In this document: positions 5,578 to 35,110 of the stretch, piece by piece
How the letters are laid out: each line of letters opens with the position of its first letter
How positions within the stretch are numbered: the stretch's first letter is position 1
Assembly (NCBI RefSeq): GCF_003334305.1
Contig: NZ_QOWS01000018.1
Source: Escherichia coli
GTDB taxonomy: Bacteria > Pseudomonadota > Gammaproteobacteria > Enterobacterales > Enterobacteriaceae
DNA: 64,000 nt
Reading direction: 5' to 3' (one strand)
Made by a program: the position numbers and the translations under genes
Notes under the pieces: model-generated
Database searches by the model: none
What the model was told of the DNA's origin: nothing
What the model saw: the letters and a program-made list of their open reading frames with translations, nothing else

Positions 5578-7693
5578 TCTGGCGTTGCAGACGACCAATC
5601 TCAGGCAGTAATGCAATCAATAATCCAACTTGTTGTACGACCAGAGGTTCTTTGCTGTCTGCCCGTGGTTCAAGTTGCTGCATCCGCTGTTTCAGGCTAG
5701 CTAATGCCTCATTGACGCGTTCTTCATCAGCAGGTTGATGATGTAACGCGTCATCAACATAGCAAACTGCGTCATCAAGAAACGCCAGAATTTCAGGATT
5801 AGTTAACTGCTCCCGGTGAGCACCGAGGGCTGAGATATAGCTGGTAAACGTATGGTTAAGGCACAGCAACCGAAACGCGGCTTCGCGAATTTGCGGGGTA
5901 ACGTTCGGTTCGCTGGACATATTTGATACCACCGACGCCAGTTCAGCATCACGGTTGTGTGCATCGCGGCGGGCAATACGATACGCCAGACGGTTATCAC
6001 GCCCCTGATGGTATTGCTCCAGTATGGCATCGAGATACCGGCAGTTGGCCTCTGTGGCGCGTTCGAGCATTCGCGGCAGATTGCGAAACTGCCAGTCAGG
6101 CCAGATGTAGCTCACTGCCGCCCACGCAATGGCACAACCAATCAGCGTATCGATTACGCGAGGTAACGCTACTTCAAAACCTTCACCCAGCAAGTTAAAA
6201 CACAGTAGCACCAAAAGTGTGATGAACATCGTTGCATGGGCATATTGCACGTTACGGAAGGCAAAAAAGAGCACGCCGGTAATAACCAGTAGCACCAGCT
6301 GCCCTTCCAGTGACGGTACAAACCACAGCACAGGAATGCCAATGGCGATACCGACCAGCGTACCAATAATCCTTAACTTCAGGCGGTGGCGCGTGGCGTT
6401 ATAGTTTGGCTGGCAGACAAACAAACTTGTCAGCAAGATCCAATACCCGTGATGCATTCCGGTTATCTGAATGATGGCGTAGCCGAAGCACAACACCAGC
6501 GACATTCTTACCGCATGACGGAAGAGGGCGGATTCCGGCGTGAAGTGACGGCTAAGACGCAGCCAGATATCACTCAATCCGTGCGGGCTATCATCAGCGA
6601 GCTCATTTTCGTCATTATTATGGGGCAGTGCCTGGGCCTGTTCTGATTCAATTGTTGCCAGTTGGGCATCAATGGCGCGTAAATTGTTCAGCAAAAATCC
6701 CAGTGTTTTAAGTAAATCGGCAGGCGCGCCGTTATCGCGCATCCGCTCCAGCGCAGCATCAATATGCGTAAAAGCGCGCTCAAAATGCGGATCATGTTGA
6801 TAAGGCTGACGCAGCAAAATACAGCGTGACAGTTGCTGGCACGCCTGGCCCTGCATCGACATCAGCCGCTGAAAACGGAACAGCACGTCGCTGTGGCGAA
6901 AATGTTCACGCAATGTTTGATACTGAATATGAGAAGAGCTGGCACGCTCGTGAATATCCTGTGCGACAAAGTAATAATGCAGCGTGCGACGCGTTCCCCG
7001 TTGACCACGATCGCCACGTAAGCGGGTCAGCAGCGAGAGTTTCGTCTGATTCAATGTCGCCATCAGCTGACCGTTGGCGAGAGCCAAATCGTACAGCGGT
7101 GCCTGGCTTTCATCTTCAATATCAGGATCAAACATGCGCGACTTGAGCTCAAGATAACGCGCCAGTTGTTCATAGCAACGCGCCAGGTTGTCCTGCAGCG
7201 GGCGGACCGGGAACAGCAGATGACCAATAAGTGTCAGGACGTTGTACCAGACGGCACCGGCCAGCAGATACATCGGCTGCTGATACCAGTGCTCATACAG
7301 TGATGTTCCCAACATAGTGTAAATGGCGATCAGCAATGCACCGAAGGCAATTGTTGCATAGCGTTGACCCAGACCGCCGAGCAAAATGAAGCCGCTGGTA
7401 GAGAGCGTTAAGCCAATCGCAAATAGCCAGGGCCAGGGAAACAGCAATTCTACTGAGGCCGAGGCGATAAAAAAGCAGAACAGCGTAATGATGAGGTTAC
7501 GCAAACGTCCCGCCAGTCGGTCATCGAGATCGGTCAGCGCCGCTGCCACCATCCCCAGCGTTAGCGGAATCGTCAGTTTTACATCACCCAGCCACCACGG
7601 AAACGCTGTGGTTCCACAAAGCGCAATAAAAATACGCGCGTAATACAGCCAGGCGCTGTTCCAGGTATAGCGTTTGAGCAAAGGACTTAGCAT
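5540..7693 (-). CDS. yccS: Inner membrane protein YccS (about 717 aa)
   Basis: Track ORF 5540..7702; multi-TM protein; start set to MLSPLLKRYTW; 3' end overlaps sxy convergently. Confidence 0.88.
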   Translation of the reverse strand: MLSPLLKRYTWNSAWLYYARIFIALCGTTAFPWWLGDVKLTIPLTLGMVAAALTDLDDRLAGRLRNLIITLFCFFIASASVELLFPWPWLFAIGLTLSTSGFILLGGLGQRYATIAFGALLIAIYTMLGTSLYEHWYQQPMYLLAGAVWYNVLTLIGHLLFPVRPLQDNLARCYEQLARYLELKSRMFDPDIEDESQAPLYDLALANGQLMATLNQTKLSLLTRLRGDRGQRGTRRTLHYYFVAQDIHERASSSHIQYQTLREHFRHSDVLFRFQRLMSMQGQACQQLSRCILLRQPYQHDPHFERAFTHIDAALERMRDNGAPADLLKTLGFLLNNLRAIDAQLATIESEQAQALPHNNDENELADDSPHGLSDIWLRLSRHFTPESALFRHAVRMSLVLCFGYAIIQITGMHHGYWILLTSLFVCQPNYNATRHRLKLRIIGTLVGIAIGIPVLWFVPSLEGQLVLLVITGVLFFAFRNVQYAHATMFITLLVLLCFNLLGEGFEVALPRVIDTLIGCAIAWAAVSYIWPDWQFRNLPRMLERATEANCRYLDAILEQYHQGRDNRLAYRIARRDAHNRDAELASVVSNMSSEPNVTPQIREAAFRLLCLNHTFTSYISALGAHREQLTNPEILAFLDDAVCYVDDALHHQPADEERVNEALASLKQRMQQLEPRADSKEPLVVQQVGLLIALLPEIGRLQRQITQVPQETPVSA

Positions 7694-15434: not shown

Positions 15435-15522
15435 TGGCGGAAGCGCAGAGATTCGAACTCTGGAACCCTTTCGGGTCGCCGGTTTTCAAGACCGGTGCCT
15501 TCAACCGCTCGGCCACACTTCC
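15435..15522 (-). tRNA. serT: tRNA-Ser (anticodon UGA), 88 nt
   Basis: Reverse complement reads GGAAGTGTGGCCGAGCGGTTGAAGGCACCGGTCTTGAAAACCGGCGACCCGAAAGGGTTCCAGAGTTCGAATCTCTGCGCTTCCGCCA; long variable arm; between yccA and hyaA as in K-12. Confidence 0.95.
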
Positions 15523-24426: not shown

Positions 24427-25725
24427 ATGAAAGCGATCTTAATCCCATTTTTATCTCTTCTGATTCCGTTAACCCCGCAATCTGCATTCGCTCAGAGTGA
24501 GCCGGAGCTGAAGCTGGAAAGTGTGGTGATTGTCAGTCGTCATGGTGTGCGTGCTCCAACCAAGGCCACGCAACTGATGCAGGATGTCACCCCAGACGCA
24601 TGGCCAACCTGGCCGGTAAAACTGGGTTGGCTGACACCGCGCGGTGGTGAGCTAATCGCCTATCTCGGACATTACCAACGCCAGCGTCTGGTAGCCGACG
24701 GATTGCTGGCGAAAAAGGGCTGCCCGCAGTCTGGTCAGGTCGCGATTATTGCTGATGTCGACGAGCGTACCCGTAAAACAGGCGAAGCCTTCGCCGCCGG
24801 GCTGGCACCTGACTGTGCAATAACCGTACATACCCAGGCAGATACGTCCAGTCCCGATCCGTTATTTAATCCTCTAAAAACTGGCGTTTGCCAACTGGAT
24901 AATGCGAACGTGACTGACGCGATCCTCAGCAGGGCAGGAGGGTCAATTGCTGACTTTACCGGGCATCGGCAAACGGCGTTTCGCGAACTGGAACGGGTGC
25001 TTAATTTTCCGCAATCAAACTTGTGCCTTAAACGTGAGAAACAGGACGAAAGCTGTTCATTAACGCAGGCATTACCATCGGAACTCAAGGTGAGCGCCGA
25101 CAATGTCTCATTAACCGGTGCGGTAAGCCTCGCATCAATGCTGACGGAGATATTTCTCCTGCAACAAGCACAGGGAATGCCGGAGCCGGGGTGGGGAAGG
25201 ATCACCGATTCACACCAGTGGAACACCTTGCTAAGTTTGCATAACGCGCAATTTTATTTGCTACAACGCACGCCAGAGGTTGCCCGCAGCCGCGCCACCC
25301 CGTTATTAGATTTGATCAAGACAGCGTTGACGCCCCATCCACCGCAAAAACAGGCGTATGGTGTGACATTACCCACTTCAGTGCTGTTTATCGCCGGACA
25401 CGATACTAATCTGGCAAATCTCGGCGGCGCACTGGAGCTCAACTGGACGCTTCCCGGTCAGCCGGATAACACGCCGCCAGGTGGTGAACTGGTGTTTGAA
25501 CGCTGGCGTCGGCTAAGCGATAACAGCCAGTGGATTCAGGTTTCGCTGGTCTTCCAGACTTTACAGCAGATGCGTGATAAAACGCCGCTGTCATTAAATA
25601 CGCCGCCCGGAGAGGTGAAACTGACCCTGGCAGGATGTGAAGAGCGAAATGCGCAGGGCATGTGTTCGTTGGCAGGTTTTACGCAAATCGTGAATGAAGC
25701 ACGCATACCGGCGTGCAGTTTGTAA
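24427..25725 (+). CDS. appA: Periplasmic acid phosphatase/phytase AppA (432 aa)
   Basis: Track ORF 24397..25725; start MKAILIPFLSLL; histidine acid phosphatase motif RHGVRAP. Confidence 0.95.
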   Translation: MKAILIPFLSLLIPLTPQSAFAQSEPELKLESVVIVSRHGVRAPTKATQLMQDVTPDAWPTWPVKLGWLTPRGGELIAYLGHYQRQRLVADGLLAKKGCPQSGQVAIIADVDERTRKTGEAFAAGLAPDCAITVHTQADTSSPDPLFNPLKTGVCQLDNANVTDAILSRAGGSIADFTGHRQTAFRELERVLNFPQSNLCLKREKQDESCSLTQALPSELKVSADNVSLTGAVSLASMLTEIFLLQQAQGMPEPGWGRITDSHQWNTLLSLHNAQFYLLQRTPEVARSRATPLLDLIKTALTPHPPQKQAYGVTLPTSVLFIAGHDTNLANLGGALELNWTLPGQPDNTPPGGELVFERWRRLSDNSQWIQVSLVFQTLQQMRDKTPLSLNTPPGEVKLTLAGCEERNAQGMCSLAGFTQIVNEARIPACSL

Positions 25726-25790
25726 TGCATAAAAAAGAGCATTCAGTTACCTGAATGCTCTGAGGCTGATGACAAACGAAGAACTGTCTA

Positions 25791-25830
25791 ATGCGTAGAC
25801 CGGAAAAGGCGTTCACGCCGCATCCGGCCA
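25791..25830. repeat. REP-type palindromic element between appA and etk
   Basis: ATGCGTAGACCGGAAAAGGCGTTCACGCCGCATCCGGCCA. Confidence 0.65.
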
Positions 25831-25839
25831 CTTTCAGTT

Positions 25840-28020
25840 TTACTCTTTCTCGGAGTAACTATAACCGTAATAGTTATAGCCGTAACTGTAAGCGGTGCTG
25901 GCGCGTTTAATCACACCATTGAGGATAGCGCCTTTAATATTGACGCCTGCCTGTTCCAGACGCTGCATTGACAAACTCACCTCTTTGGCGGTGTTCAAGC
26001 CAAAACGCGCAACCAGCAGGCTGGTGCCAACAGAACGCCCCACGACCGCGGCATCACTCACCGCCAGCATCGGCGGCGTATCGACAATCACCAGATCGTA
26101 ATGGTCGTTCGCCCATTCCAGTAATTGACGCATCCGATCGCGCATCAGCAGTTCAGACGGGTTAGGTGGCACCTGACCGCGAGTAATCACATCAAAGCCT
26201 CCTTTGCCAAAATGCTGGATCACTTTGTTGAGCTCATCTTTACCTGCCAGATATTCCGACAAGCCATGTTCATTACTCACGGTAAACAGGTTATGCGAAT
26301 AACCACGGCGTAAGTCGGCATCAATAAATAACACTTTTTGATCGGACTGGGCGATCACCGCTGCCAGAGTTGAACTGACAAACGTTTTACCACTGTCTGG
26401 CGTCGCACTGGTGATCATCAGAATGTTATTCTCCGTCTCCATCATAGCGAAATGCAGACTGGTTCGTAGCGCACGTACGGCTTCCACAGCAGAATCCGCC
26501 GGGTTATCCACCGCCAGGAAGGGGATATTTTTAGTACGATGGCGCTGCTGATTAGAAAATAAATTTTTCTTACGCAGACGGGTGCGTTTATCCAGCCACT
26601 CGGACATTGGGATAGTGGCATAAACGCTGATGCCGTGCTCTTCCAGTTGTTCCGGGGCTTCTACACCACGACGCAACATCGCACGCGCCAGCACGGCACC
26701 CACAGAAATAAACAGGCCAAGAATAAAACCAAGCACCACATTCAACGCTTTTTTCGGTTTCACTGGCTGCGGCTGAGTGACTGCCGGGTCGATAATCCGC
26801 ACGTTACCAATGGCACTGGATTTCGAAATACTCAACTCCTGCTGGCGGTTAAGTAATTGCAGATATACCGCACGGCCCGCTTCTACGTCACGACTTAAAC
26901 GCAACACTTCCTGTTGGGTGGAAGGCATTGCCGATACCCGCTTATTCAGGCGTTTGCGTTCTTGCTCCAGCGTCTGGCGTTTTTCCAGCAGCGCACGATA
27001 AGTTGGGTGATCTTTCTTATACAGCTGGGAGATCTCTGCCTCGCGGAAGGTCAGCTCATTGAGTTGATTATCAACGTTCACAATCTGCTCAAGAACGGCT
27101 TTGGCTTCCAGGTTAAGGTCAACCGAATCGCGCTGCTGGCGATACACGTTGAGTTTTTCTTCCGCCTGGTCCAACTCGCTGCGCACTTCAGGTAACTGGC
27201 GCTGTAAGAATTCAAGGCTTTGTGAATCCTGCGCCGCCTGGCGAGCGATATTCTGTTGCAAATAGTTGTTAGCGATGCTGTTCAGAATACGAGTAATCAA
27301 CTGGGGATCATCACCAGTCATGGTAAGTTCCAGCATCCCGCTTTCTTTACTGCGTTCGCTAACGGTAAAGGTTTCCTGCAATGCGTTAATCGCTTCCAGT
27401 TCGGTACGCTGGCTCAGGACAAACTGTGTTCCTGGTTTGGCCTTAATGTCCGCGATAGTCAGCGCAACGCCATCTTTTTCCAGACGCTGGCCGACCATAC
27501 CATTGACGGTGAACTCTTCACCTTCCAGTGTATAGTGGCCGTTTTCCCCAACCGTGAGTGTCAGTTGCTGATCCTGACCATTCAGTTGTGGAATATGCAT
27601 CCAGCTGATCGCCAGCTCACCTGGTTTTTCTTTGGTTAATCTCGCCCAGCCGCGACCCACAATCGGAAAATACTTCTGCTCAACTATGTCGCGCAGATTC
27701 AGTTCAGCAATGGTTTTACCGAGAATCATGCGCGATTGCAGCAGTTGGATCTCCGGTGCAGACTCGGGCGATGAGTTAGGGATCATATCGCTCAGGCCGC
27801 TGAGAATGGCGTTGCCCTGTTTTTGCTCAACCTGGACCAGAGTATCTGCCTGATAAATTGGTGTACTTAACAGCGAGTAAGCGACAGCGATCAGCGTGAA
27901 TAACGCGGTCACGCTGATAATAAACTTACGGTGATCCCATAACTCGCCGACCAGACGAAGCAGATCGATCTCATTTTCCTGAGTGCTGCCTGGTGGCGTA
28001 TTCATATTTTTAGTTGTCAT
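25840..28020 (-). CDS. etk: Tyrosine-protein kinase Etk (726 aa)
   Basis: Track ORF 25840..28020; Walker A DSGKT and C-terminal Tyr-rich tail YSYGYNYYGYSY; adjacent to appA and gfc operon. Confidence 0.93.
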   Translation of the reverse strand: MTTKNMNTPPGSTQENEIDLLRLVGELWDHRKFIISVTALFTLIAVAYSLLSTPIYQADTLVQVEQKQGNAILSGLSDMIPNSSPESAPEIQLLQSRMILGKTIAELNLRDIVEQKYFPIVGRGWARLTKEKPGELAISWMHIPQLNGQDQQLTLTVGENGHYTLEGEEFTVNGMVGQRLEKDGVALTIADIKAKPGTQFVLSQRTELEAINALQETFTVSERSKESGMLELTMTGDDPQLITRILNSIANNYLQQNIARQAAQDSQSLEFLQRQLPEVRSELDQAEEKLNVYRQQRDSVDLNLEAKAVLEQIVNVDNQLNELTFREAEISQLYKKDHPTYRALLEKRQTLEQERKRLNKRVSAMPSTQQEVLRLSRDVEAGRAVYLQLLNRQQELSISKSSAIGNVRIIDPAVTQPQPVKPKKALNVVLGFILGLFISVGAVLARAMLRRGVEAPEQLEEHGISVYATIPMSEWLDKRTRLRKKNLFSNQQRHRTKNIPFLAVDNPADSAVEAVRALRTSLHFAMMETENNILMITSATPDSGKTFVSSTLAAVIAQSDQKVLFIDADLRRGYSHNLFTVSNEHGLSEYLAGKDELNKVIQHFGKGGFDVITRGQVPPNPSELLMRDRMRQLLEWANDHYDLVIVDTPPMLAVSDAAVVGRSVGTSLLVARFGLNTAKEVSLSMQRLEQAGVNIKGAILNGVIKRASTAYSYGYNYYGYSYSEKE

Positions 28021-28039
28021 CGTATTTTATAAACTCAAA

Positions 28040-28486
28040 TTACCGGCTGAGGCGCTTCGCCCATTCCTGACTGGCGCGCTCCAACATACCGTAGACATGT
28101 TCAAATGCGTCCTGACTTTTACGATAGGGATCCGGGATCTCTTTCTGTTCCAGCCATTGCCCAAACAGCATTGTCTTCCCGCGGACCTCGGGAGCGATTG
28201 CGGTAACCTGAGCAATATGCTCTGACTCCATTGCCAGAATCAGATCGTAATTTCGTGCCATCTCAGCAGTGAGCTTACGTCCGGCATGTCCTTCAAGAGA
28301 TACGCCATGATTAGCGGCAACATCTGCTGCTGTCGCATCTGCAGGGTGTTTTACCAGACCATGAACACCTGCCGATTTGACTTTTACGCCTGGCAGACGT
28401 TTACGCAGCAAGCGCTCGCCAATGGGCGAACGGCAAATGTTGCCGGTACAAACCACCAGGATTGAGTTAAATTTTAGTTGGGCCAT
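28040..28486 (-). CDS. etp: Low-molecular-weight protein-tyrosine phosphatase Etp (148 aa)
   Basis: Track ORF 28040..28498; start [21 protein letters not shown] (CX5R P-loop). Confidence 0.93.
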
Positions 28487-29613
28487 GTTTGAATCCACCG
28501 TGAAGTCTCTGTCAGGTCATGCACCCCGGAAATCGTCGGTACCAGCAGAGAAATCACACGGTTCCAACGAGCCAGCGGCGCAGTAGTGACATAAACAATG
28601 TCGTAAGGTTCAAGCTGGAATTCCGTTCCGAGTATCATTGCCGATGCGTCCTTCGCATTCAGCTGATAAATATTGGCGATTTTGCCATTCTGCTTGTTTT
28701 GCGTTGCACGAATAACAAAAATCCCCGTCGCATCAGCGACATCCTGATTCATACCCTCAGCGTTACCCAGCGCTTCCGCCAGGGTCATACCGCTGCGGTC
28801 CATTTTCAGCGTGCTCTGTTTACCCACTTCACCCATCACGAAGACTTTCAGATCATCGTTGCGCGGAATAAATAAAATATCGCCCGGGTGCAGCAGTTTG
28901 TTCTGGCGCAAGTCGCCACGCTGCATCAGCGCATAGAGGTTCACTTTGGTCTTTACGCCATTCTGGGTGAGCACCACGTTGCGCCAGTCTGCATCTGCGG
29001 TCAGACCGCCCGCGGCGTTAATCGCATCCATGATGGTCAGAGGAATATTGGTAATCGGCTGCTGACCCGATTTGCTGACTTCGCCGGTGACGTACGCTTT
29101 TTGCGAGCGGAACGCCGCGACGCTGACATCGACTTGCGGGCTTTCAATGACTGAATCCAGACGCGCTGTAATCTCGTTGCGTACCTGGGTAAGTGTTTTC
29201 CCGGCCACTTTCAGGCGACCAATATAGGGGTAGAAAATCGCACCATCGGCGTTAACCCAGTTGCCGGTATCACTGGCGCTACGGTATTGCCCTGCGGGGG
29301 TGGTTAGTTCCGGGTGATCCCAGACCGTAACCATCAACACATCCCCAATGCCGATACGATATTCATAGTTTGCGATTTGCTGCTCCAGCTCCGGGTTAGC
29401 CTGCGACATAATCGGTTTGGCGCGCAACTGATCAATCAATCCTGGCGTGACGGGATAGATATTGACCATTTTGTCCAGGTCATACTGATTGTCAGGTAGT
29501 TCAATGACATCCTTGTTACTGGTCGATAAATTCTGACCAGGAACAAGGGTACATGCTGTCAAAGACAGAACAGCCAATGTCAGTACCGAAAACTTAAAAA
29601 TGTTCTTTTTCAT
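28474..29613 (-). CDS. gfcE: Polysaccharide export outer membrane lipoprotein GfcE (379 aa)
   Basis: Track ORF 28474..29634; start [21 protein letters not shown]. Confidence 0.92.
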
Positions 29614-29658
29614 TGGTTTATATTTATCAGTCAATGTAATGTTATGAATTACGTCAGG

Positions 29659-31755
29659 TTATTGTCCAACCGGTACTTCTCGCTCTGCCGTCATTGGATA
29701 GAGCTGGTATTTGCGTGACAGCATTTGTCCACCATCACGCGTCAATGGTGTCCACGAAACCACCGCGCGGTTGCGGTTAGGTCCAATGGTCATCAAGTCG
29801 AATGGAATCGAGATATAAAAACCTTTACTAAAGCCGCCTTCGCCGTAGTCATCTTTAGATACGTTACTGATTGCCGCCCATACCCCTACCGCCACGCCGC
29901 TGTCAAAGCGTTTGGCGACGTCGATCGTTGCGCCTTTATCTTTTGCCAGATATTGCCCAACGCTAAGTTTCATCAGTACGCCATTGAGCGTCGGCGGGTT
30001 CCAGTAAGCCGTCACGAAACCTGTTGGCGTGGAATAATCGGTGAAACGCATCATGTTGTCCCAGTCACGTTGCTTCACGTAGTTAACGTCCACACCCAGC
30101 GCCCAGCTGGCATCTAGCGGGCGATAAAGCAGCTCGGAACCGACACCGGCGTACATCGTTTCCAGATAACCGCCATACACCTGGCCATAGAAACCATTGC
30201 CTAAGTCGGCAAAGTAGTTCGCCTGCAAGTTGTTGAGATAAACGTCATTGCGAACGTAATCACGGATATGCGTGCGCACGCGGGGCAGGGTAGAGTCCGC
30301 GGGCAACAGCGAAGACTTAAACTTGTCGTAGTTGTTGTAAATATTGGTGAAAATACCGCCATCAAGCAGCAGGTGGTCGGTAAACCAGTAGCGGGCACTG
30401 GACATCAGCCCCAGCTGGAACATATAGAAATCTTCCGGGCCGCCCAGCGACTGTGAAAGTGTTGGGTTGAAAGAGTAGCTAAAGCGATCTTCACGAATAC
30501 GGTAGCCCCGACCAAAGGCAGAAAGATCTTCTGCTTCAACACGTTGTTGTTGAAGTTGCTCTGATTGACCAGGCGCTGTACCAGCCAGCTGTTTGCGCAG
30601 GCTGGCTACGTCGGTTTCGGTAGTCACCATCGCCATATGCTCGCGCTTTTGCGTCACGCTAATCTTCTCAACGCCTTGCGGCAGGTTATTCACCAGAATC
30701 CGGTTGGCACGATCGACCGCTTCGCGAGAATCACGGTATTTGTATTGTTGACCAGACATATACAGCGTCTTATCGCGCAGCTGAATTTCCGGTGCTTCAA
30801 AACCTGCGTTGTACTTCAGCGCGGTAAGTTGGTTCGCTACTGTGGTGTACTGCAATCCTTCAGATTCAGGCGCAGGTTGATATGCCGGTTTTGGCGTATC
30901 GCGCAGGGCAGGGCGCAGATCGTTGAAATTGGTCCGTAACGTGAAGCCAAACATCAACGTGTTACCGCGTTCATAACTCAGGTTGAGATCTGCCCAGCTG
31001 GCAGCGCGATAAACTGCGCCGACGTTGAAATGGCTTGCCTGAGGCAGTTTGCCAGCGAAATCATTCTGGTAATTGTTGCCATCGTATTCGAGTTTCAGAC
31101 GCAGGGGATTCCACGGCGTTTGATACTCAATGCCGCCAAAGATGGAAGCCGGGCCACGAAAGATATCGCTAAAGCTGATATCGCCCGCATCGTGAGACTC
31201 TGCGCGATGACAATATTTATCGCTCACCCGGCAAAACGGGTTGGTAATATTGCCCGCATTACCGGCGTAGCCCCATGCCATCCCGAGGGTGAAATCAAAT
31301 GGCCCCGCTTGCTTGCTGGCCACCAGATACTCACCGTCAAACAGACCCGTACCAGCAATATCACGTTTACCAAACGCCACTTGCGGTAGCCAGTAACCTT
31401 CTTCCCACAGGCGAAGTTTAAAATCGAATGATTTGTCTTTGTATGACTGATCGCCGCTGAAATCTTCCCACTGGCTATATTTGCGTGTGCGCACATCCGT
31501 ATAACGAATGGTGCCTTCCAGCCATGGGAACAGCGCCACGGAGGTGGAGTAGAACCGGTATTGATCGTTATCCCGGTAGTTGACGCTGAATTCACCTTCC
31601 GGTGCGATGCGCGCATTTGGCATCTGCAACAATCCTGTGCCGCCAAAGTCTGATTGCGACGAACCCAGCGGATCCGGGTAGGTTAATACTTCAGCATGAC
31701 AGGCACTGGAGACGGCAATGGCCAGGCAGCTTAAAAGATAAGAATTCTTCTTCAT
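29659..31755 (-). CDS. gfcD: Outer membrane beta-barrel protein GfcD (698 aa)
   Basis: Track ORF 29659..31755; signal peptide. Confidence 0.92.
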
Positions 31756-32501
31756 CAGTCAGGAACACGTTGCGTTAAAACAGACACAATCTGGTCATTT
31801 AAATCAGCATATTTTTCGGGCAGTACATGCGCAGAAAAGCCCAACCAAAGCTGGCTGCCAGGCGGTGGTTCCACATGTCTTTTATTCCACAGGGCAACAG
31901 GGGCGACGACAGTCTCACCCTCAGGCGTAATCACCATAACGTTATTCTTGTCCGCGCCTGCAAGGCGGGGGTGATCTTGCAGATAATCGGTAACGCTACG
32001 GCCTGCCTGCCAGGGCAATTGCCCGGCCCCAGAAACCGCACCCAGCAGAGTAATAGTCACCGGACGCTGTACGGTATAGAGCGTATAGTCCCCGACCAAC
32101 GGGGGATTGCTGTTCTCATCCACTCGTACAAAATCAGGGTCCAGTTTGACCGGTAAGCGACCAGTGATATTGAGATTGAGTAACTGCTGGCGCACGGATT
32201 TAATCGTTGCCGCCACATCGTCGTCAGCTTCTGCTTCCCAGGAAGCAAGCTGTGCCATGACATGTTGGTAGTCTTTAAGCGCTTTAGCTTTCGCCGCAGA
32301 GTCGGTCAGCAAGGCACCAGGCCACCAGAGGCGATCGCGCAGTTGCGGTTGTGTCACCAACTGGACAACATTTTCCATGGGGCCAACGGAAAGTGTCTGT
32401 TGTTCGCCAGGCAGATAAATAGTCACCGTTCCTTGCGCAAAGGCATGGGGTGTCATTACGTAAAGTACGCTGGCAATGAAATACGACTGTAATTTATTCA
32501 T
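31755..32501 (-). CDS. gfcC: Periplasmic protein GfcC (248 aa)
   Basis: Track ORF 31755..32501. Confidence 0.9.
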
Positions 32502-33142
32502 GGTGCGGGTTTAAGAAACGTCATTTCTACGGGAATAACCCCTGCGCCTAACATTTGCCGACTTTGACGAACCTGGCCAGTAGCCGAATCGACCCAGAAT
32601 GTGTTTTGCCACTGTTTTTCTGGCCGCGTGGAAGTCACCTCTTCCTGCCAGACATTACACAGCACATTGCGACCCGCAATATTCAGCGTCTCTAATCCAG
32701 CAAAGGAAAAAGTAGAACTCAGGGTCGCAGAGCGAAAATGGTTGTCTTCACTCCAGAGAATATCGCGCGTCCAGCGGCTGCCATCTTTTATTGCCAGCGC
32801 GTTACGCAGAGGGTCCTGCCCGGAATTTGTCACTTCCAGCAGATTATTATTAAGTTTGACGGTTTTTAAAAGACGTCCATTGTGGGTAACCAGCATGGCG
32901 TTATCCTGGGATAACCATTTGCTTTGTTCTTGTTCTATATATCCCAGTACCACAAAGATTCGTTGCCCTTCATTAAGGCGTAAATACATAGTGGAATAAG
33001 GCAACGCCTGGATCTGCTGATCCGCTACGGTGATATCCTGATTATCGAAAAGGCTGGCGCGAAATGTATCGACCATACTTTGCTGGCTGTGCGTACATCC
33101 CGCAAGAAATAGTGCGAAAATCGATAAAATAAGAGGGCGCAC
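32498..33142 (-). CDS. gfcB: Lipoprotein GfcB (214 aa)
   Basis: Track ORF 32498..33142; lipobox LAGC. Confidence 0.9.
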   Translation of the reverse strand: MRPLILSIFALFLAGCTHSQQSMVDTFRASLFDNQDITVADQQIQALPYSTMYLRLNEGQRIFVVLGYIEQEQSKWLSQDNAMLVTHNGRLLKTVKLNNNLLEVTNSGQDPLRNALAIKDGSRWTRDILWSEDNHFRSATLSSTFSFAGLETLNIAGRNVLCNVWQEEVTSTRPEKQWQNTFWVDSATGQVRQSRQMLGAGVIPVEMTFLKPAP

Positions 33143-33248
33143 CTTTAATCCTTGAAAGGTTAATTAAAAAAATGCAAATCTCTAAAGCCCGGTACGAATA
33201 TCGCAACCGGGTATCATTTAACTTTAATTTCGACGCGTTAAAGCAGTA

Positions 33249-33554
33249 TTAGCGTGTAGTGGACGTGGTGGTTGAGGTGTTATGAGAACCGCCATCGCCA
33301 CTGTCATTTGCTGCAACAACTGCCAACGTCGCCACACCAACAGCCGTTGCCACACCGACAACTGTCGCCGTGCCGACAGCGCCAGCAGCCACGCCACCAG
33401 TGGTAGTAGCAGTCGTGGTTGCGCCGGTAGTGGTCGTTGTGGTGCCAGTAGTACCCGTCGTTGCCTCGGTCCCGTTTGTTGCTTCAGGGGCAGCAAACGC
33501 AGCTGGCGTCGTCAACATGAAGGCCATAAGGATTGCAGAAAGCTTGTGTTTCAT
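33249..33554 (-). CDS. gfcA: Thr/Gly/Ala-rich membrane protein GfcA (101 aa)
   Basis: Track ORF 33249..33572; start MKHKLSAILMAF; low-complexity TTGTTTTTTGATTTATTTGG tract. Confidence 0.88.
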   Translation of the reverse strand: MKHKLSAILMAFMLTTPAAFAAPEATNGTEATTGTTGTTTTTTGATTTATTTGGVAAGAVGTATVVGVATAVGVATLAVVAANDSGDGGSHNTSTTTSTTR

Positions 33555-33995
33555 AACTTTTCCTTTATTCATCGCATGGACAATACGTACGCTTGAGATC
33601 AGGATTGTCTACTTTGAGTATAACATCCTTGTGAAATCTCCCTTTCCTCATACCGCTTGCACTATATACTGCGGGTAGGAAAGGCGCGCAGAGGGAAATA
33701 TAAGATTGTTAACTATCCCCCTCTGGAAATACGACTTGTGAGCATAAGATAAATCTTAGCAAAATACAAATTAAAGATAAGGAAATTGTTACGAAAGCTA
33801 TTAATTATTGTTGGTAATATAGTTTCAAGTGGTACTATAACTGGCTGTTAAATGGCATTTATAACTATTAGGTGCAGAGATATTCGCTTAAATGGATTAG
33901 TTTCTTTGTGGAAAAGTAACTGATGTTATAATGTATGGTGTTGACTATTGCACTATTCCAATAAAACCAGTCAGCTTTAAACAAGCAGCGTCATA

Positions 33996-34208
33996 TTAAG
34001 AGAGATAAACATTTGCCGCTGTTGGTCCTCGCAGGCCATTTACGCGGCAAAATTCCACACGTAATCCTGGTATAAGCACTTCTGCGTCGCGGGGAGTGAA
34101 TGCGGAAATATGGACCTGAACTTCTTTACGACCGTCGGAGGGGATAATGAATCCTTTGCCGCTTTTGCGATCAAAGGTTTTGACAATTCCTGTCATTTTA
34201 CGGGACAA
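33996..34208 (-). CDS. cspH: Cold-shock-like protein CspH (70 aa)
   Basis: Track ORF 33996..34208; cold-shock domain. Confidence 0.93.
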
Positions 34209-34493
34209 ACAAATTCCTTACTGAAAATACTGCGCTGCACTATACGGGGTTAATAAAATAAAGCCAGCGATATTTAAGACCGCCGGACGGCTAAAATAAA
34301 ATTTGCTTAATCTCAATTATCATGCGTTAATAGCTGCGTCGGTTTGAAAGACAGACAGCATACAAAGTAGTTTACTAAAGCAGTTCTCATTATCAGGCAT
34401 TATCCCCTTCTTTTGAGTCTCTCTCCTGAACACTAAGTAGTTTCTGTATTAAAGCCCTGTTTGCCGAAAGGCCCAAAATGAAGGAAGTAAAAT

Positions 34494-34706
34494 ATGTCTA
34501 ATAAAATGACTGGTTTAGTAAAATGGTTTAACGCAGATAAAGGTTTTGGCTTTATCACTCCTGATGATGGCAGCAAAGACGTTTTCGTCCATTTCACTGC
34601 CATCCAGAGCAATGAATTCCGCACGCTGAACGAAAATCAGAAAGTTGAATTTTCTATTGAGCAGGGGCAACGTGGCCCCGCGGCAGCGAACGTTGTTACG
34701 CTCTAA
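34494..34706 (+). CDS. cspG: Cold-shock protein CspG (70 aa)
   Basis: Track ORF 34494..34706; [21 protein letters not shown]. Confidence 0.95.
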
Positions 34707-34905
34707 GGTTGCCGTTATTACTCAACATCTCCATTTCCGCTGTCCATGTTGTCATGGTTCACAGTACCGTACATCGGCATTCGATGTGACGGAGCGAAAC
34801 CCTTTGGGCGCTAAGTGTATTTTTTGTAAATCGACGATGATCACCTTTGATAACGTCGCGCTGCAAATATGCACGGACCATGCGCCGCTGGATTTCACAA
34901 AATAA
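34645..34905 (+). CDS. Small Cys-rich (zinc-ribbon-like) protein immediately after cspG; start uncertain, possibly K-12 ymcF
   Basis: Track ORF begins at TTG inside cspG; contains CPCC and CIFC motifs; true start may be the GTG at 34672 or later. Confidence 0.3.
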
Positions 34906-35110
34906 TATCAGGCTCCCTCGTGGAGCCTTTTTTATATCTGCCTTATTTTTCTTCAACGCTGTATGTATAGTAAGCGATAACCTGTTGATTATTGAATCTT
35001 TCGGGGAGATGGCTTATAACATTTCTTACCTGACCAGGGTACCGGGAACCAACACCTTACTGGCGTGTTGCTGTCTTTCAAGACCAGAAGAGGTTAACAG
35101 TGAATATTGA
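34880..35110 (+). CDS. ymcE: Cold-shock-region small protein YmcE/Sfa (76 aa)
   Basis: Track ORF 34847..35110; start [15 protein letters not shown]. Confidence 0.8.
   Translation: MRRWISQNNIRLPRGAFFISALFFFNAVCIVSDNLLIIESFGEMAYNISYLTRVPGTNTLLACCCLSRPEEVNSEY

Follow-up and report, generated by a model that had tools for sequence, protein, structure and literature searches.

The question raised by the gfc locus of this Escherichia coli strain is whether the group 4 capsule operon, gfcABCDE-etp-etk, still lies behind its own upstream DNA. In K-12 the promoter region of the operon (also named ymc) contains an IS1 element that is absent from that position in pathogenic strains (PMC2516531, PMC12428005), and this difference between K-12 and pathogens is already published. 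A preliminary description of the window, the 64-kb stretch of DNA analysed here, had claimed that the intergenic region between gfcA and cspH carries neither a transposase open reading frame (ORF) nor repeats like the ends of an insertion sequence, and that the operon probably keeps its native promoter. We followed these claims from the gene content of the locus to the interrupted alleles of other strains and to the spacer sequence itself.

The operon occupies a chromosomal site between appA and cspH, and the genes of the region are ordered appCB-appA / etk-etp-gfcEDCBA / cspH / cspG-ymcF-ymcE-gnsA / yccM / torS. All seven operon genes are co-directional, on the minus strand, and full length, with ORF lengths equal to those of K-12. 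They encode the threonine-rich inner membrane protein GfcA (33249-33554; 101 amino acids, WP_001295358.1 in a record of 100% identity), the lipoprotein GfcB (32498-33142), GfcC (31755-32501), the outer membrane protein GfcD, which carries a YjbH domain (29659-31755; 698 amino acids), the Wza-like polysaccharide export protein GfcE (28474-29613), the phosphotyrosine phosphatase Etp (28040-28486) and, as the last gene, the BY-kinase Etk (25840-28020; 726 amino acids). The bounds of gfcA, gfcB, gfcC, gfcD and etk were taken from the ORF list together with the RefSeq annotation of strain A7, and those of etp and gfcE from the A7 annotation (for gfcE, locus positions 6475-7614 plus 21999). A7 is a wild strain from orangutan faeces that is 100% identical to the window over 24 kb (22000-46000), and several other commensal isolates are nearly identical over this interval as well. 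In its RefSeq annotation, 7 of the 7 gfc-operon genes are complete and free of pseudogene flags. Upstream of gfcA, the co-directional neighbour is cspH (33996-34208, minus strand; ORF list and A7 annotation). The ends of these two flanking genes set the bounds of the spacer exactly, with gfcA starting at 33554 and the cspH stop codon beginning at 33996; the uninterrupted spacer is, thus, the 441 bp at 33555-33995 (minus strand), precisely the span given in the preliminary description. Rfam searches of the surroundings recovered a single tRNA gene at 15438-15522 (minus strand; RF00005, 57.5 bits, 85 nt) and a full-length cspA thermoregulator over the cspG leader and coding region (34338-34760, plus strand; RF01766, 162.7 bits), as expected for a cold-shock gene. 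A match to the Salmonella small RNA STnc220 in the ymcE/gnsA region (34863-34943, plus strand) was below threshold, reaching 33.4 bits (E = 0.002) where the gathering score is 60.

None of the features that define an IS1 copy is present in the spacer. Allowing up to 3 mismatches, we found no match to the IS1 terminal repeat GGTGATGCTGCCAACTTACTGAT in the entire 64 kb. A search of 33400-34250 found no inverted repeats, and no ORF of 40 or more amino acids lies wholly within 33555-33995. The 9-bp sequence GACAATACG, which is the IS1 target in K-12, occurs here in single copy at 33579-33587, a position 25-33 bp ahead of the gfcA start codon. Terminal repeats, insA/insB frames and a flanking 9-bp duplication are, therefore, all absent at the spacer, and the empty repeat and ORF scans bear out the claim that the region has neither a transposase ORF nor IS-like ends.

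Alignment with K-12 MG1655, the check proposed for the earlier reading, confirmed that K-12 has an IS1 at exactly this site. The MG1655 record carries IS1D (768 bp, insA4/insB4) at 1049778-1050545, between gfcA and cspH, with the transposase genes oriented away from gfcA. The flanks of the element match window positions 33200-33587 and 33579-34300, leaving a 9-bp overlap, so that the window corresponds to K-12 minus the 768-bp IS1D and minus one copy of GACAATACG. The flanking DNA of the K-12 gfc locus (b0988/b4516) is otherwise near-identical to ours: positions 33200-33587 show 100% identity, and the spacer outside the insertion differs by 2 substitutions. Hence, the distinction between the two loci is the IS1D and the second GACAATACG copy that K-12 carries 25-33 bp ahead of gfcA and that are both missing here. 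Insertion at this site in K-12 cuts off the gfcA ribosome-binding site from all of the upstream spacer DNA. However, the element may not fully silence the operon, because K-12 shows etk-dependent phenotypes despite the IS1 (PMC2516531).

Because a site free of insertion sequences is the default condition, the informative measure is how frequent each allele is rather than chance. To place the two alleles in the species, we surveyed 5,426 complete E. coli genomes with an 81-bp probe centred on the site, a stringent 80-bp probe for the left K-12 junction and a probe for the distal 391 bp of the spacer. The 81-bp site probe had some match in 3,611 genomes and was unbroken in 3,205 of the 5,426 (59%). 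Where it was split, one match ran over probe positions 1-45 and the other over 37-81; a 9-bp overlap of this kind is what target duplication should leave. The K-12 junction was present in 390 of the 5,426 genomes (7%); those listed are mostly K-12 derivatives (MG1655, DH10B, J53, MC4100 and others) and also include an enterotoxigenic E. coli (ETEC) from a Belgian pig, together with isolates from cattle and chickens. The distal probe matched 3,717 genomes and was split or truncated in 214 of them. The empty site is found as well in O157:H7, in E. coli B REL606, in EPEC O127:H6 and in many commensals. Among genomes that bear the operon, the uninterrupted spacer is the majority state, and it is the ordinary wild-type condition of the locus.

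Some 1,800 of the 5,426 genomes had no match to the gfcA-proximal probe. Many genomes of the ExPEC type lack the operon altogether, as in B1.H1.18, where the appA and cspH-cspG flanks are as in the window and the 8,278 bp at 25717-33994, comprising the operon and both of its spacers, are replaced by 7 bp. The last cspH codons of this allele differ synonymously from those of the window (CTC TCT TAA versus TTG TCT TGA), a difference that points to an old haplotype rather than a recent deletion. In the same genome appA is annotated as frameshifted and overlaps cspH.

The recovery of K-12-type insertions from farm animals raises the alternative that the empty site in our strain is a revertant, produced when an ancestral IS1 was lost by precise excision. 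The pig strain ETEC1717, for instance, has the K-12-type junction at the same site and in the same orientation within flanks that are 99.88% identical to those of K-12, although 4 bases distinguish its IS1 from IS1D; the insertion is, therefore, not restricted to laboratory stocks. However, the target in the window is one clean 9-bp copy that bears no scar, and IS1 very rarely excises precisely. Furthermore, the empty site spans lineages as distant as O157:H7, EPEC O127:H6, REL606 and the commensals, and this distribution identifies it as the ancestral state. On the strength of the scarless single target and of the empty site in distant lineages we rejected the excision scenario, which we regard as extremely improbable. 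Instead, the DNA upstream of gfcA in the window very probably represents the ancestral, uninterrupted form, and the gfcABCDE-etp-etk operon that follows it is complete, so that any promoter or regulatory sites in this DNA are still joined to the genes.

Other interruptions of the spacer were found in the survey. The engineered E. coli B strain C3029 contains IS1D with 1 mismatch. A native sharing of the K-12 insertion by E. coli B was rejected, given that REL606 has the empty site, and the C3029 copy likely derives from K-12 DNA brought in during strain construction. A pig strain of serotype O39:H21 has an independent IS1 of the IS1A type, with 9 differences from IS1D and a 9-bp overlap at 33802-33810, and the human urinary isolate JNQH498 carries a 1,195-bp ISKpn26, of the IS5 family, at about 33755-33759. 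As a separate observation, gfcD of ETEC1717 is also truncated, adjoining an IS26. The presence of the K-12-type insertion in some livestock isolates and the independent IS hits at no fewer than two other spacer positions are mildly new. With at least three independent insertion sites (33579-33587, 33802-33810 and about 33755-33759), one may ask whether the spacer is a recurrent, and possibly selected, target through which insertion sequences switch the group 4 capsule in nature. We offer this reading tentatively and consider it rather unlikely; if true, the K-12 insertion would be a natural polymorphism rather than a laboratory artefact.

For the uninterrupted allele, the closest known system is the group 4 capsule operon gfc (ymc) as it occurs in EPEC and EHEC (Peleg et al., 2005, as relayed in PMC8592465 and PMC2516531). 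In EPEC E2348/69 and EHEC O157:H7, the stretch from appA to cspH likewise holds these seven genes, identically ordered, behind a spacer of equal length (441 bp); over the final ~50 bp ahead of the ATG, its sequence is identical to ours. Our spacer aligned without gaps over the 441 bp to that of EPEC O127:H6 E2348/69, the strain used in published work on this capsule, with 25 substitutions, and, also gap-free, to that of EHEC O157:H7 86-24, with 26. Most of these substitutions fall in the cspH-proximal half; neither pathogen differs from the window at 33555-33606, and a single base separates our proximal 100 bp from those of E2348/69. Thus, by this alignment and by the lack of IS features, the upstream region is uninterrupted, as it is in capsule-producing EPEC. 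EPEC E2348/69 transcribes gfcA at high levels that correlate with the capsule, and 'gfcA and its promoter' were cloned in EPEC from its own upstream DNA (PMC3853201). Because the spacer is contiguous here, any promoter or regulatory sites that it holds would still be joined to the operon, as in E2348/69. The empty site, the intact genes and the spacer collinear with EPEC support, on structural grounds, the earlier proposal that the operon probably keeps its native promoter.

Where such a promoter might lie is suggested by the pattern of conservation. Among six diverse E. coli genomes, a small sample, variable columns were most frequent at the cspH-adjacent end of the spacer (21 of 96) and least frequent at the end adjacent to gfcA, with none at 33555-33599 and a single one (33607) across the 100 bp nearest gfcA. 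This nearly invariant block (33555-33654, minus strand), which includes both the ribosome-binding stretch of gfcA (AAAGGAAAAG) and the IS1D target site, is a candidate for the core promoter and 5' leader. By eye, we spotted in the block an extended -10-like sequence, TGtTATACT, at 33625-33617 (minus strand), which is not accompanied by a -35 element. Searches for sigma-70 promoters gave nothing above chance: a scan for sigma-70-like sites over 33400-34300 on either strand returned 0 against 2.0 expected, and a matrix scan of the gfcA strand peaked at 6.5, whereas the best scores in shuffled sequence averaged 8.0. Since both scans were at or below chance, the position of the promoter can only be inferred; we would place it upstream of 33587, probably inside the 33555-33654 block or immediately upstream of it. 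Rfam gave no match in 33555-33995, either at E ≤ 1 (search of 33000-35000) or at the gathering threshold (search of the whole window). The spacer is AT-rich (26-33% G+C over 33700-33950) and has no consensus sigma-70 site, and for these reasons we think that the promoter is likely to depend on an activator or to be sensitive to H-NS. Our literature search on gfcA regulation (H-NS, RcsB, transcription start sites) retrieved nothing specific. The change in gfcA in an O157 rcsB mutant was only +1.48-fold, and a sigma-28 SELEX peak lies inside gfcB, outside the spacer.

The nearly invariant block also accommodates a 28-codon ATG ORF (MRKGRFHKDVILKVDNPDLKRTYCPCDE) at 33565-33651 (minus strand), which stops 10 nt short of the gfcA start codon. 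The variable base at 33607 is synonymous in this frame, no obvious Shine-Dalgarno sequence precedes it, and in K-12 it would be cut by IS1D. This ORF may well have arisen by chance.

The operon could, alternatively, have no dedicated promoter in the spacer and receive its main transcriptional input by read-through from cspH. The two genes share a strand, and we recognised no intrinsic terminator between them (33900-34000, minus strand; fold z = 0.58) and no terminator-like site in the whole spacer, so that cspH transcripts must either end by another route or enter the spacer. Once there, however, they would have to cross 441 bp as AT-rich untranslated RNA, which is a good substrate for Rho-dependent termination. 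Read-through also fits poorly with the conservation of the spacer, which peaks beside gfcA and is lowest beside cspH, and with the genomes that lack gfc, which have lost the spacer with the operon rather than kept it with cspH. We consequently hold it improbable that read-through is the principal source of gfcA transcripts. Further upstream, in the divergent region between cspH and cspG, a terminator-like hairpin followed by a T-run (CCGGCGGTCTTAAATATCGCTGG CTTTATTTTA) is located at 34264-34286 (minus strand), ahead of the cspH start; such sites numbered 1 against 1.0 expected by chance. In the model of an ancestral, uninterrupted allele, transcription starting at the native promoter, or reading through from cspH, would reach gfcA in this strain.

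An intact spacer is necessary for this expression in our model, yet it is insufficient, as trans-acting factors matter too. It is no guarantee of expression, because the spacer of EHEC is intact and its gfcA transcript nevertheless differs significantly from that of EPEC, although the operon is present in both (PMC3853201). The operon of our strain could, by the same token, be silent or weak behind its intact spacer, for example through H-NS silencing or for want of an activator, in which case the lack of IS1 would have no phenotypic effect. The low G+C content of the spacer (26-33% over 33700-33950) and the failure of either scan to find a consensus promoter agree with such silence, as does the behaviour of EHEC, in which the same layout is coupled to a different gfcA transcript level and an O26 strain is not capsulated (PMC10932389). 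Against it, our proximal 100 bp are one base away from those of EPEC, in which gfcA is strongly expressed (PMC3853201). We regard a silent operon as plausible as a caveat, a real possibility even if not the outcome that we expect.

For the biology of the strain, the implications are modest, and beyond correct annotation the finding matters little. The difference between the K-12 and wild-type gfc loci is a textbook case of K-12 as an atypical reference. Capsule formation further depends on the O-antigen locus, located outside the 64-kb window, and predicting the capsule would require information on that locus and on expression. Still, the gfc locus of our strain is of the common wild-type form. 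In contrast to K-12, the strain is structurally able to express the export machinery of the group 4 (O-antigen) capsule from native upstream DNA, a property of relevance only for predicting its capsule phenotype, its resistance to serum and defensins, and the masking of its surface structures.
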